Origin: an uncultured Pseudomonadales bacterium
GTDB lineage: Bacteria; Patescibacteriota; Microgenomatia; UBA1400; PJMF01
Assembly (NCBI GenBank): GCA_964620965.1
Contig: CAZUHV010000001.1
Span: forward strand, 20,839 to 82,061
Length of the DNA stretch: 61,223 bases
Reading direction: 5' to 3'
Each line of letters begins with the position of its first letter. Position 1 is the stretch's first letter. Below are positions 28,474-30,550 of this stretch, piece by piece. The notes beneath the pieces are model-generated. The model searched no databases. It was not told where the DNA came from and was given only the letters and a program-made list of their open reading frames with translations. Both the position numbers and the translations under genes were made by a program.

Positions 28474-28493
28474 AATAGCAATTTTAGCCTGGT
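28474..28493 (+). repeat. Imperfect 20-bp direct repeat, copy 1
   Basis: AATAGCAATTTTAGCCTGGT; 17/20 identical to 30531-30550, with a shared 11-mer TTTAGCCTGGT. Confidence 0.55.
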
Positions 28494-28511
28494 ATATGTA
28501 AGGAATATACA

Positions 28512-28540
28512 TTGAGACAAGTAGTTTGCTGGTGTATTAT
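28512..28540 (+). promoter_or_regulatory. Sigma70-type promoter of the integrase
   Basis: TTGAGA-N17-TATTAT, 15 nt before ATG 28556. Confidence 0.6.
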
Positions 28541-28555
28541 TCAGAATTGAAGCTA

Positions 28556-29434
28556 ATGGATAATAAGTTTAAGATTTATTTGATAAACAAAGGTCTTAAG
28601 GATAGGACGGTTAAGCAAATTGAGTATAGGGTAAACAAAATACTTGAAAGTTGCCGTCCTCTAACAGAAGACAATTTTGCAGATTTTCAATATTCTTTGA
28701 TGTCTAAAATATCTAATGCTGGGGTAAATAAGTATATTCAAGCGATTAGACACTGGAACTCATATAATGGGGTTAAAAAATTCAAGATAAAAGCATTAAA
28801 AGAAGTTAGTAAACAACCGAGAGTTTTAACAAACGAGCAGATATATAAAATAATCTACTGCAAAAAAAATCTATACACCCCATACATAAAGATACTCGCC
28901 CATACTGGAGCAAGGCCATCAGAAGTTCTCTTTCTAGAAAAAAATAATATAAATATTGAACAAAGAATAATCTACGTTGACGAATCAAAGACCGGTAACG
29001 GGAGATTAATACCAATACCAAGCTCAATTATTCATGAAATGGAAAACTATAAACCATTTGAGAAAACAATAGAATCTTTAAATAAAGAGCTTAAAAAACG
29101 CTGTAATAAAATTGGTATAGATCCAATAACATCATATAGTTTTAGACACTCTTTCATTACAAGAATGGTTGCACAAGGAATCCCCTTAATGGTAATTATG
29201 GCTATTGTTGGACATAAAAAAGCAACAACTACACAACAATACTTCCACCAAAATAGAGAGATGTTACTTACTGGAATAGATCAGGACGTTCTTAATTGGG
29301 AGTATCTAAGTTCTAGAGAAAAACTAGAAAATGTTAAGGAAAAGATCAGAAAAATAGTCAAAGTCAATGGGATCAAAACAAGCATAAGTGAAGATGATTC
29401 ATCTTTTGTGTTACAGATACGTATTGATGAATAG
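28556..29434 (+). CDS. Tyrosine recombinase/integrase
   Basis: TGARPSE (R), SKTGNGR (K), YSFRH (H replaced by Y, then xxR), VGH and TQQY (Y). N-terminal SAM-like core-binding domain. Confidence 0.93.
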   Translation: MDNKFKIYLINKGLKDRTVKQIEYRVNKILESCRPLTEDNFADFQYSLMSKISNAGVNKYIQAIRHWNSYNGVKKFKIKALKEVSKQPRVLTNEQIYKIIYCKKNLYTPYIKILAHTGARPSEVLFLEKNNINIEQRIIYVDESKTGNGRLIPIPSSIIHEMENYKPFEKTIESLNKELKKRCNKIGIDPITSYSFRHSFITRMVAQGIPLMVIMAIVGHKKATTTQQYFHQNREMLLTGIDQDVLNWEYLSSREKLENVKEKIRKIVKVNGIKTSISEDDSSFVLQIRIDE

Positions 29435-29458
29435 ACCGATGTATGCAATATTGTTAGT

Positions 29459-29620
29459 GTGAACCAATTAAAATTAGATAAAAGATTACAAGAATGTTAC
29501 AGACAGCTTGTAAATATGGGCTATAATGTCAAGGTTATCTCTCCAAAAGAAATAAAAATAACCGTTGAAAAAGATGCCGAACCTAACCCCAAAACAAAAA
29601 GTAAAACTAAAACAACTTGA
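29459..29620 (+). CDS. Small hypothetical protein A (53 aa; below ORF-track cut-off)
   Basis: GTG start. Translates as VNQLKLDKRLQECYRQLVNMGYNVKVISPKEIKITVEK... and is similar to ORF B. Confidence 0.4.
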   Translation: MNQLKLDKRLQECYRQLVNMGYNVKVISPKEIKITVEKDAEPNPKTKSKTKTT

Positions 29621-29735
29621 AAAATTAGCACAAAAAGCTAAAGAATCTGGTTTAAATGTTTCTGTTGAGTCTCTTACTGAAATAAAGATTGAGATACCTA
29701 AAAACAGCAATAACAATGAGTCAAATAAAAAATAA
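29574..29735 (+). CDS. Small hypothetical protein B (53 aa)
   Basis: Translates as MPNLTPKQKVKLKQLEKLAQKAKESGLNVSVESLTEIKIEIPK... and shares GxNVxVxSxxEIKI with ORF A. Confidence 0.45.
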   Translation: MPNLTPKQKVKLKQLEKLAQKAKESGLNVSVESLTEIKIEIPKNSNNNESNKK

Positions 29736-29844
29736 CTTATATATCATATATTTACCTATTTTTTGAACAAGATTGCCCTGTTTTTTTTATAAAAAGTCAC
29801 CCGAAAATTAACCTGTTTTGATATAGTAATTAGCAGTCATTTTT

Positions 29845-29871
29845 TAAAACTGCTACTTGCGTAAATATAAT
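29845..29871 (+). promoter_or_regulatory. Candidate promoter for the ncRNA-tRNA transcript, overlapped by an inverted repeat
   Basis: TTTAAA-N17-TATAAT, with TATAAT at 29866-29871. TAGCAGT-N11-ACTGCTA (29831-29855) overlaps the -35. Confidence 0.45.
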
Positions 29872-29890
29872 AGCTTGTGATTAACTATTA

Positions 29891-30275
29891 CTGCCCAAAA
29901 AAACGGGACAGGTACTTAAAATTGATTACATGTGCACTGTGAGCTTTCACAGGTGCTGTTGACTACAATAGCACATGGGCAGCACCACCTGCGAGAGCTT
30001 ACAAAGTGAAGTTTTCCCCTGTAAACACTAGTAAATTATTGATTCTGATGGTGAGTTTTAAGTACCGCCTCAGAAACTAACCAGCGTATTAAGTTGGTGG
30101 AAGAAAGTCGTCGAACTTATGACGGTTTTTGTTCTGGTACAAAAACCGCTACCTAGATCCGTCAGATCCATGGTAGCGATTTTGTATTCGATATAGAGTC
30201 AGGTTTGTATTTACCAACCTAACTCGATTGTGGGTCTCGTTTTTTTTGAGACTCACTTTCAGAGTCAATAACTCT
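29891..30275 (+). ncRNA. Candidate large structured non-coding RNA of unknown family
   Basis: No ORF on + except one spanning the tRNA. About 10 helices, including a 13-bp long-range helix 29911-23/30054-66 and an 18-bp helix 29938-55/29986-30003. G-U pairs favour the + strand. Confidence 0.6.
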
Positions 30276-30282
30276 AATAAGA

Positions 30283-30364
30283 GCCGGTATGGTGGAAATG
30301 GTAGACACGTGGGTCTCCAAAACCTATGCTCCGCAGCGTACGAGTTCGAATCTCGTTACCGGCA
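30283..30364 (+). tRNA. tRNA with CCA (Trp) anticodon on a class II tRNA-Leu-type body
   Basis: GCCGGTA/TACCGGC acceptor stem, A73, D arm GTGGAAATGGTAGACAC, TGGGT-CTCCAAA-ACCTA, V arm T-GCT-CCGC-AGC-G-T, T arm ACGAG-TTCGAAT-CTCGT. 3' CCA not encoded. Confidence 0.9.
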
Positions 30365-30476
30365 CTTATTAAAATCTTTTAATGATCTAAAAATACCTCT
30401 TTTTGAATGAATGAGTGGACATTGTAATAGTGTTGTTGAGGATTGTCAACATTTCATGGTATCTCGCTTTTTTAAA

Positions 30477-30494
30477 AACCGTTTTAAAACGGTT
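30477..30494. repeat. Perfect 18-bp palindrome
   Basis: AACCGTTTTAAAACGGTT. Confidence 0.8.
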
Positions 30495-30530
30495 GTGCTA
30501 ATAGCATACTATTTAGTGTGTACACGTTGC

Positions 30531-30550
30531 AATAGGTAATTTAGCCTGGT
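30531..30550 (+). repeat. Imperfect 20-bp direct repeat, copy 2
   Basis: AATAGGTAATTTAGCCTGGT; matches 28474-28493. Confidence 0.55.

Follow-up and report, generated by a model that had tools for sequence, protein, structure and literature searches.

The DNA analysed here, called the window throughout, is a stretch of 61,223 nt from contig CAZUHV010000001.1, and the element in question is a compact cassette at the point where host DNA gives way to a prophage. The cassette carries a tyrosine integrase, two small open reading frames (ORF1 and ORF2), a structured non-coding stretch and a tRNA gene with the anticodon CCA, all on the plus strand, and it converges on a lysin-like gene on the opposite strand, an arrangement that we found to be as the first-pass annotation of the window had described it. 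To the left of the attachment (att) core described below lie the host housekeeping genes RmlB, GltX, DnaX, TypA and DinB, and to the right of the lysin-like gene, tail, tape-measure-like, head and terminase genes extend to the end of the window. We read positions 28356-30656 as the left-terminal integration module, together with an RNA "moron" slot, of one temperate phage of about 39 kb that is integrated in the 3' end of a host tRNA-Gln(CUG) gene, and we put the probability of this reading at roughly 0.88. A moron is an accessory-gene site that is not needed for phage growth. Related loci in other sequencing runs were recovered by exact-protein look-ups, and the evidence base consists of seven distinct short-read contigs. 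Coordinates of the features are collected in Table 1.

Insertion site and attachment core

We compared the window with an empty site, a near-isogenic contig from run SRR11577119 (L004) that has no phage and that carries the host 77-aa gene which adjoins the cassette in the window. This contig is 99.1% identical to window positions 23192-28382, and past the shared part it continues into a minus-strand tRNA-Gln(CUG) gene, the response regulator of a two-component system and glycosyltransferases. The comparison places the insertion breakpoint at 28356-28373, where an 18-bp core is found. Read on the minus strand, this core corresponds to the end of the T arm, the 3' acceptor strand and the discriminator of the host tRNA-Gln(CUG), plus 3 nt beyond. 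It is present as a single copy in the whole window, with none between the cassette and the lysin-like gene, and the distance from the core to the tyrosine integrase is 182 nt. On its phage side the core is followed by imperfect similarity to the T arm (28374-28382), which an alignment showed as well. Homology between the window and the relatives L009, L010 and L099 begins exactly at 28356, and contig L014 stops exactly at the same position, as expected at an assembly-graph branch. At the position of the core, the 74%-identical relative L010 has a different core (GTGATCCCGTGCAAGGAT, L010 positions 270-300), which suggests that L010 may target a tRNA with a different T-stem.

The junction of the phage with itself was observed in a contig from run SRR32005136 (L012, the same as L002), which is 100% identical to window positions 28356-33196 and diverges exactly at 28356. 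Instead of host DNA, its flank beyond the core is DNA that matches the sequence beyond the integrase at 97.7% identity in L099 and at 69% in L009, and in both of those contigs this flanking early-region DNA runs on into SSB and early/replication genes. Because the other flank is phage early-region DNA joined at the core, we identify this contig as an attP junction, the source of which would be a circular or concatemeric phage, possibly a tandem lysogen. In all three contigs of the attP form (L012, L099 and L009) the integrase has the early genes of the phage on one side and the lysin on the other. The first-pass annotation had listed, as one of three models, the phage's own end with an att site upstream of the integrase, and both the empty site and the attP junction at 28356-28373 bear this model out.

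Recombination at the core left the host's own tRNA 3' fragment at attL, inside the window. Because the core is identical to the 3' terminal segment of the tRNA, the tRNA-Gln gene would be rebuilt by the same recombination, at attR and with the phage copy of the 3' end. The far-end gene of L099 matches window positions 59762-60028, and because of this match the missing right end with attR should lie several kb beyond position 61223. We estimate that attR would be found about 5-7 kb past the right end of the window, giving a prophage of about 39 kb. Positions 61061-61223 hold at least 13 copies of a tandem repeat with a perfect 12-nt period (GACTTGAGCCCC and variants), which runs into the right end and is probably the reason that the assembly or the window stops inside the prophage. 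On the proposed circular map, the leftward early genes would be followed by attP, the rightward integrase, the RNA slot, and the leftward lysis and late genes. This order would account for the integrase and the lysis gene being convergent neighbours with no host DNA between them.

A second model in the first-pass annotation, the one it favoured, took the 2-kb cassette for an autonomous minimal integrative element or satellite that delivers RNA cargo, with a pair of 20-nt repeats as its attL and attR. The repeats, AATAGCAATTTTAGCCTGGT (28474-28493) and AATAGGTAATTTAGCCTGGT (30531-30550), are present and 17/20 identical, and each is the other's sole match of at least 15/20 on either strand of the 61-kb window, which makes them the best such pair there. 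The model also draws on the facts that the cassette has its own integrase and that RNA content differs among relatives. However, the breakpoint revealed by the empty site coincides with neither repeat and lies 118 bp to the left of the first one; no second core is present; and an equally good pair arises by chance in about 5% of shuffles (200-nt integrase-upstream region versus 920-nt non-coding region). The repeats also fail to bracket a unit: the first lies inside phage DNA that is common to the attP contigs and the relatives, the second lies within a spacer (30377-30656) conserved across six phages whatever their RNA cargo, and the segment that does vary (29736-30376) leaves out the integrase and both repeats. 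Every integrase-bearing contig continues into the same phage or ends, and in lysogen contigs and attP contigs alike the cassette adjoins the phage without a break; neither a phage without the cassette nor a cassette without the phage was found among the contigs recovered by exact-protein look-up. An autonomous element is therefore very improbable. The conserved element upstream of the integrase that holds the first repeat includes TTGTCAAATAGCAATTTTAG, which is invariant in L009, L010 and L012 amid flanks that are just 71-77% identical. Both repeats are probably functional sequences, candidate promoter or regulator sites by their conservation, and not recombination ends.

The third model had the phage inserted after the CCA tRNA, with its own integrase beyond the window; in a tandem-array variant that we also considered, the phage would sit beside an older integrase islet. 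On either version the integrase, the folded RNA and the tRNA would belong to the host or to a separate element. Phages often insert just after tRNA genes, and the far end of this prophage is not in the window, both of which count for the model. The empty site, on the other hand, lacks the integrase, the folded RNA and the CCA tRNA alike, the attP-form contigs carry the integrase within the phage, and there is no internal att core between the cassette and the lysin. We give this model almost no credence.

Integrase and small open reading frames

The translated integrase contains the motifs ARPSE, HSFITR and GHK...QQY, which correspond to the R, HxxR and H...Y catalytic motifs. An alternative TTG start at 28526 would extend the protein to 302 aa; gene callers and the homologues P0002 and P0003 use the 292/293-aa form, and in the exact protein look-up the 292-aa form gave a match and the 302-aa form gave none. 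The family is very rare, with three clusters among 5.8 billion proteins (E<=1e-10), and scans of IMG/VR for relatives gave only matches of 23% identity.

Immediately to the right of the integrase lie ORF1 and ORF2, whose pairwise BLASTP comparison (E=7e-4) identifies them as paralogues. Both are kept in all relatives (ORF1 specifically in L009, L010, L099, L103 and L104). Neither matches a Pfam or PHROG family, and homologues of ORF2 form just three clusters in the protein database. An AlphaFold (AF2) model of ORF2 consists of a helix (residues 6-24) and a beta-hairpin at a predicted local distance difference test (pLDDT) score of 77, and both mini-proteins are predicted to adopt this fold; a Foldseek search of the PDB with the ORF2 model gave no match. 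Their position makes them candidate excision (directionality) or regulatory factors. A resemblance between the C-terminal tail of the integrase and the mini-proteins was considered and set aside, as BLASTP did not support it (E=7.5).

An exchangeable RNA slot

Beyond the stop codon of ORF2, the closest relatives of the phage carry other cargo. The identity of L099 and L098 to the window is 87-91% as far as 29735, counted from 28356 for L099 and from 28746, where its contig ends, for L098. It is 89-90% again beyond 30377, and between these two points both contigs have 444 unrelated nt. At the same position L009 has two protein genes, and both L010 and L103 have a terminated small RNA. We read this slot as recombinationally exchangeable, with promoter-like elements of its own. 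A linkage between integrase homologues and the RNA region, which the first-pass annotation had raised, is upheld in that an RNA slot adjoins the integrase but not in that its content is constant.

In the window, the slot holds a non-coding stretch of about 550 nt without ORFs that folds far better than shuffled sequences do (z=-6.25). The folded RNA itself spans about 450 nt in two domains. Domain 2 has a minimum free energy of -85.1 kcal/mol (z=-6.2), and its closing helix was also found as an inverted repeat. A block, CCCGAAAATTAACCTGTTTTGATATAGT, is common to the window, L010 and L103, and the sequences diverge after it. When positions 29700-30660 were searched against Rfam, only the tRNA passed, and no other family appeared even at E<=10. 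ARAGORN found no transfer-messenger RNA (tmRNA) in the region, and with a low threshold on the non-coding RNA (ncRNA) it returned noise. As identities for the ncRNA, tmRNA, RNase P, T-box, group II domain V and signal recognition particle RNA were each rejected for want of an Rfam match and for the wrong order of motifs. Searching JGI metagenomes with an 18-mer of the ncRNA gave 27 matches, all of them chance matches of 18-25 nt; in the INPHARED phage collection only the tRNA part was matched, and weakly; and scans of phage, viral and metagenome collections yielded no homologue of the ncRNA.

We did observe the same RNA module in one other contig, L104 (SRR32688039). Its domain 2 and tRNA, 344 nt in all, show five differences from those of the window (about 98.5% identity), and they are accompanied by another domain 1 (a different long-hairpin RNA), another promoter block and a clearly diverged ORF2. 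The differences keep the predicted pairs, for example by a change of G.U to A-U, and are too few for a covariation test. Because L104 is nearly identical in domain 2 and the tRNA and diverged around them, the module appears either to have moved between phage backbones or to be under strong constraint. The folded RNA is known from just these two phage lineages.

GOLLD and ROOL are large multi-stem RNAs of as yet unknown function that are found in prophages right beside a tRNA gene. The window resembles them in having a multi-stem RNA in a prophage that adjoins a tRNA gene. Unlike them, its RNA has no covariance-model match, is far smaller (236 nt for domain 2, about 450 nt overall) and is restricted to two phage lineages.

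A tRNA with a leucine body and a tryptophan anticodon

The tRNA gene at the end of the slot encodes four intact arms. Its variable arm measures 13 nt, its anticodon loop has 7 nt, with U33 and with a purine in position 37, its discriminator is A73, and no CCA end is encoded. Its D arm is of the Leu type (GUGG...GGUAGACAC), and its structural features are those of a tRNA-Leu. Its anticodon is that of a tRNA-Trp and not that of a tRNA-Leu, and its body differs from that of a tRNA-Trp in the long variable arm and in having A rather than G as the discriminator. We searched the GTDB representatives and IMG/VR with a pattern in which the D arm and anticodon stem were fixed and position 35 was free. 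All 53 matches (51 genomic and 2 viral) have A35 and are thus tRNA-Leu(CAA). The window tRNA departs from the consensus of the 51 tRNA-Leu(CAA) sequences (at least 90% agreement) at four positions only, in a comparison in which the selection pattern forces agreement in parts of the D and anticodon arms. These departures are C35 in place of A, U42 (giving a G.U pair) and an A-U in place of a G-C at 49:65, which accounts for two positions and is compensated. Its nearest relatives among tRNA-Leu sequences belong to various phyla, Patescibacteria among them. By its sequence, the tRNA is a tRNA-Leu(CAA) design with the change A35C, which would read UGG. The first-pass annotation had called it chimeric, and this holds for the combination of a Leu body with a Trp anticodon; the combination stems from a single anticodon base and not from an att junction.

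An altered host genetic code was ruled out as an explanation: six of the eight TGG codons of RmlB align with conserved Trp residues in a solved homologue, so that UGG encodes Trp in the host. TGG usage is unremarkable at 1.15% in the host and 0.74% in the phage.

The bacterial leucyl-tRNA synthetase (LeuRS) requires A73 and the tertiary design of a Leu tRNA and takes no account of the anticodon, and the bacterial tryptophanyl-tRNA synthetase (TrpRS) needs CCA and prefers G73. Because LeuRS relies on A73 and tertiary design and does not consult the anticodon, leucine would be the most likely amino acid for this tRNA. Provided that the gene is expressed and its transcript processed, a tRNA charged with Leu and reading UGG is the first-ranked of the four readings that we weighed, although we hold it tentatively and at less than even odds. 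Charging by TrpRS is distinctly improbable.

The tRNA could instead be a recent point mutant of a phage tRNA-Leu(CAA), tolerated or weakly deleterious and with no selected function, in which case the folded RNA would be a separate, accessory small RNA. It is after all one base from CAA, only two near-identical copies of the module show the CCA anticodon, and no other CCA version in this sequence context was found among 185,579 species representatives or in IMG/VR. (IMG/VR scans with an arm of the CCA tRNA gave chance matches, none of them a tRNA.) Such a history fits less well with a tRNA that is otherwise intact and in which the 49:65 pair is compensated. Furthermore, the CCA anticodon has outlasted five other substitutions or indels and a transfer to another phage backbone, and the tRNA occurs in at least five sequencing runs. 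The tRNA-like genes that sister phages carry in the slot, described below, also show a mismatch between acceptor identity and anticodon. We consider the neutral-mutant explanation possible but rather unlikely.

tRNA-like genes at the same position in relatives

L100, L101 and L102, which come from three independent sources, carry a 70-nt tRNA that is called as Arg(UCU). L103 carries a 74-nt tRNA that is called as Leu(UAG) and is without a long variable arm, and L098 and L099 carry a 71-nt tRNA-like sequence with an abnormal anticodon loop (6 nt as drawn by ARAGORN). The alanine identity set of G1-C72, G2-C71, G3.U70 and A73 is present in all of them. Their D arms are reduced and their anticodon arms are non-Ala or abnormal, and the acceptor and T arms are strictly kept. 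Leu and Ala synthetases are enzymes by which the anticodon is not read. Taken from these sequences, the locus appears to hold tRNA-shaped RNAs whose acceptor ends would fit anticodon-blind synthetases and whose anticodon arms vary freely.

A further reading is that the window tRNA and these tRNA-like sequences are non-decoding modules of longer RNAs, which would inhibit tRNA-targeting nucleases or modification enzymes or act as decoys for them, donate aminoacyl groups away from the ribosome or serve as processing handles of the ncRNA beside them. The aberrant D and anticodon arms beside conserved acceptor and T arms speak for it, as does a likeness to tmRNA. The L098, L099 and L100 sequences score 23.7-27.7 bits against the tRNA-like domain of the tmRNA model, which is below threshold, and the relatives fit this domain better than they fit the tRNA model; their 3' 24-mer recurs unchanged at the 3' terminus of genuine tmRNAs from jumbo-phage contigs. 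Leader/trailer helices likewise surround every version, with 7 bp in the window and 24-26 bp in L099, L100 and L103, where the tRNA-like sequences sit at the helix tip. Two compensatory double changes separate the helix of L099 from that of L100, and the outer helix of L103 still pairs despite its unrelated sequence. In the window, moreover, the tRNA follows domain 2 of the ncRNA closely. Against a non-decoding role stand the canonical anticodon loop of the window tRNA and its tRNA score (Table 1), the fact that no partner protein is encoded nearby, and the compatibility of long processing stems with maturation by RNase III and RNase P. We regard this reading as unlikely.

Other RNAs were noted in the same contigs. 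A conserved, terminated small RNA of about 110 nt (AAGGTTTTATCCCC...GGGGATAAGACCTTTTTTT) lies upstream of the tRNA-like gene in L099 (about 1990-2130) and L100 (about 9120-9260), and another hairpin small RNA is common to L010 (in its tail, about 1990-2048) and L103; neither has a match in Rfam. At its contig end, L100 carries a Nextera transposase adapter (AGATGTGTATAAGAGACAG, 9472-9490), which is an assembly artefact and not biology.

The spacer and the lysin-like gene

The spacer contains a promoter-like site on the minus strand that points leftward and is thus antisense to the tRNA, the ncRNA and the integrase. L099, L100 and L104 retain both hexamers and the distance between them, as does L103, in which the surroundings have diverged. 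Beyond the spacer, the C-terminal region of the lysin-like protein (about 200 aa) is common to the homologues P0005-P0015, in which the N-terminus is swapped among VanY/M15, M23 and CHAP-like domains. The N-terminal domain in the window is unannotated and recurs in distant phages of about 40 kb; in IMG/VR it was found in two distant phages, neither with an integrase or a tRNA beside the lysin. A 24-mer of the spacer and the C-terminal region of the lysin gave no match in IMG/VR, and the lysins proved too diverse in alignment to guide a search for related loci. In a more distant phage group (P0042), MazG and VRR_NUC genes follow the lysin.

Table 1. Features of the prophage end, in window coordinates unless a contig is named
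Feature	Position	Strand	Basis or remark
att core in attL	28356-28373		GTGATCCCGAACTAGGAT, 18 bp; common to attL of the window, attP contig L012 and tRNA-Gln(ctg) of L004
Imperfect T-arm similarity, phage side of the core	28374-28382		BLAST match of L004 extends to 28382 with an indel
Conserved integrase-upstream element	28468-28499	+	TTGTCA-AATAGCAATTTTAGCCTGGT-ATATGT; holds repeat 1; candidate Pint or regulator-binding site
Tyrosine integrase, 292 aa	28556-29434	+	PF00589, E=5.9e-22; PHROG integrase families down to 1e-36
ORF1, 53 aa	29459-29620	+	Helix and beta-hairpin type; paralogue of ORF2
ORF2, 53 aa from ATG	29574-29735	+	Overlaps ORF1 by 47 nt in another frame
Variable RNA cargo slot	29736-30376	+	Segment swapped for unrelated RNA genes in the closest relatives
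Extended -10-like TGATATAGT	29809-29817	+	Candidate ncRNA promoter; read by eye, missed by the consensus scan
ncRNA domain 1	29826-30030	+	Small hairpins and one long hairpin at about 29935-30008 (fold)
ncRNA domain 2, 236 nt	30036-30271	+	13-bp closing helix (30036-30048 with 30259-30271) around about 7 hairpins
Leader/trailer helix, 7 bp (TAATAAG / CTTATTA)	30275-30371	+	Inverted repeat and fold; extends the acceptor stem
Type-II tRNA, anticodon CCA	30283-30364	+	ARAGORN; Rfam tRNA, 55.9 bits; 11 nt after domain 2
Conserved non-coding spacer, 280 nt	30377-30656		From the RNA slot to the lysin stop; alignment of six phages
Promoter-like TTGACA-17-TACAAT	30449-30421	-	Promoter scan, 11/12; sigma-70-like
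Bidirectional terminator-like hairpin	30477-30494		Palindrome
Lysin-like protein, 349 aa	30657-31706	-	First gene of the leftward late operon
tRNA-like genes of relatives	L099 1858-1930; L098 5847-5919; L100 8996-9065; L103 1451-1524

Discussion

Several points weigh against the reading of the locus as the integration module and RNA slot of a single prophage. Both attR and the rebuilt tRNA-Gln fall outside the window, and the attP junction could stem from a tandem double lysogen rather than from a free circle. All of the comparison contigs are short-read metagenome assemblies, mostly from Logan, and a chimeric join is possible for any single one of them; five independent samples agree on the insertion picture. 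Both 20-nt repeats are conserved in relatives, in a role for which the reading does not account. As for the RNA cargo, it is known here from sequence alone; the CCA anticodon occurs in just two closely related copies of the module (the window type and that of L104), and retention in two copies is weak evidence of selection; and the leader/trailer helix could block normal maturation of the tRNA.

Tyrosine-integrase modules that target the 3' ends of tRNA genes, with T-loop and 3'-end sublocations, were reportedly surveyed by Williams in 2002 in Nucleic Acids Research. The module described here is like these in that its integrase adjoins attP, its core is the 3' terminal segment of a tRNA gene and a displaced 3' fragment lies at the other junction. 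It differs from them in that the integrase adjoins the displaced fragment and not the intact tRNA, in that attP lies between the integrase and the early/replication genes, and in that the integrase and a lysis gene are convergent. In the tRNA-dependent lysogeny of mycobacteriophages, a core of about 10 bp is used, the host tRNA is destroyed and the phage carries a tRNA of identical isotype (Guerrero-Bustamante & Hatfull 2024, PMC10865867). In that system, as in the present one, the phage is temperate and encodes a tyrosine integrase, attB and a host tRNA gene overlap, and the phage bears a tRNA gene. Here, however, the 18-bp core spans the whole 3' end of tRNA-Gln, and the phage tRNA is a Leu-type tRNA with the anticodon CCA and not a tRNA-Gln. 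We rejected tRNA-dependent lysogeny for the window phage on these grounds, as recombination at the core would rebuild the tRNA-Gln and the phage tRNA is of another type.

The tRNA-Gly of the Escherichia coli mutA allele is said to be a natural mistranslating tRNA. Natural dual-identity tRNAs with mistranslating activity include tRNAProX of Streptomyces and Kitasatospora (PMC10404621), and anticodon variants of human tRNA-Ala and tRNA-Ser also have dual identity (PMC12084884, PMC12993449); the Ala synthetase, which would match the acceptor ends of the tRNA-like genes in relatives, ignores the anticodon (PMC10543346). Like the dual-identity tRNAs, the window tRNA has the body identity of one amino acid and the anticodon of another. 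Unlike them, it is borne by a phage and has no dedicated synthetase nearby, and it is known from its gene sequence. No Leu body combined with a Trp anticodon was found in the literature searched, and literature searches turned up no phage-borne dual-identity tRNA. Three reports describe phage tRNAs that compensate for codon usage or evade tRNA-targeting defences (PMC10264068, PMC11555353, PMC11464382). The window tRNA is like these in being a tRNA gene carried as accessory phage cargo. In those tRNAs, the cognate relation of anticodon and identity is reportedly kept and the changes are in the loop around the anticodon, whereas in the window tRNA it is the anticodon itself that is non-cognate.

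As a mobile element, the locus is an ordinary, textbook end of a tRNA-targeting prophage, the attB, attL and attP of which are now defined to the base. Its cargo includes a 236-nt multi-hairpin RNA that matches no described family and stands beside a tRNA. The sister loci suggest that the mismatch between anticodon and identity belongs to the locus as such and is not accidental. That this phage family keeps a rapidly exchanging slot for tRNAs, beside or within large folded RNAs, that combine the identity for an anticodon-blind synthetase with other anticodons, and that the window version serves the deliberate recoding of a sense codon (UGG to Leu), is a doubtful proposal on the sequences compared here. 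If it is true, the slot would constitute a phage-borne mistranslation device that works without a dedicated synthetase in the infected or lysogenic cell. If the tRNA is charged and used, it would, as a reader of the sole Trp codon, add a natural sense-codon mistranslator to the few bacterial and human cases that are known.

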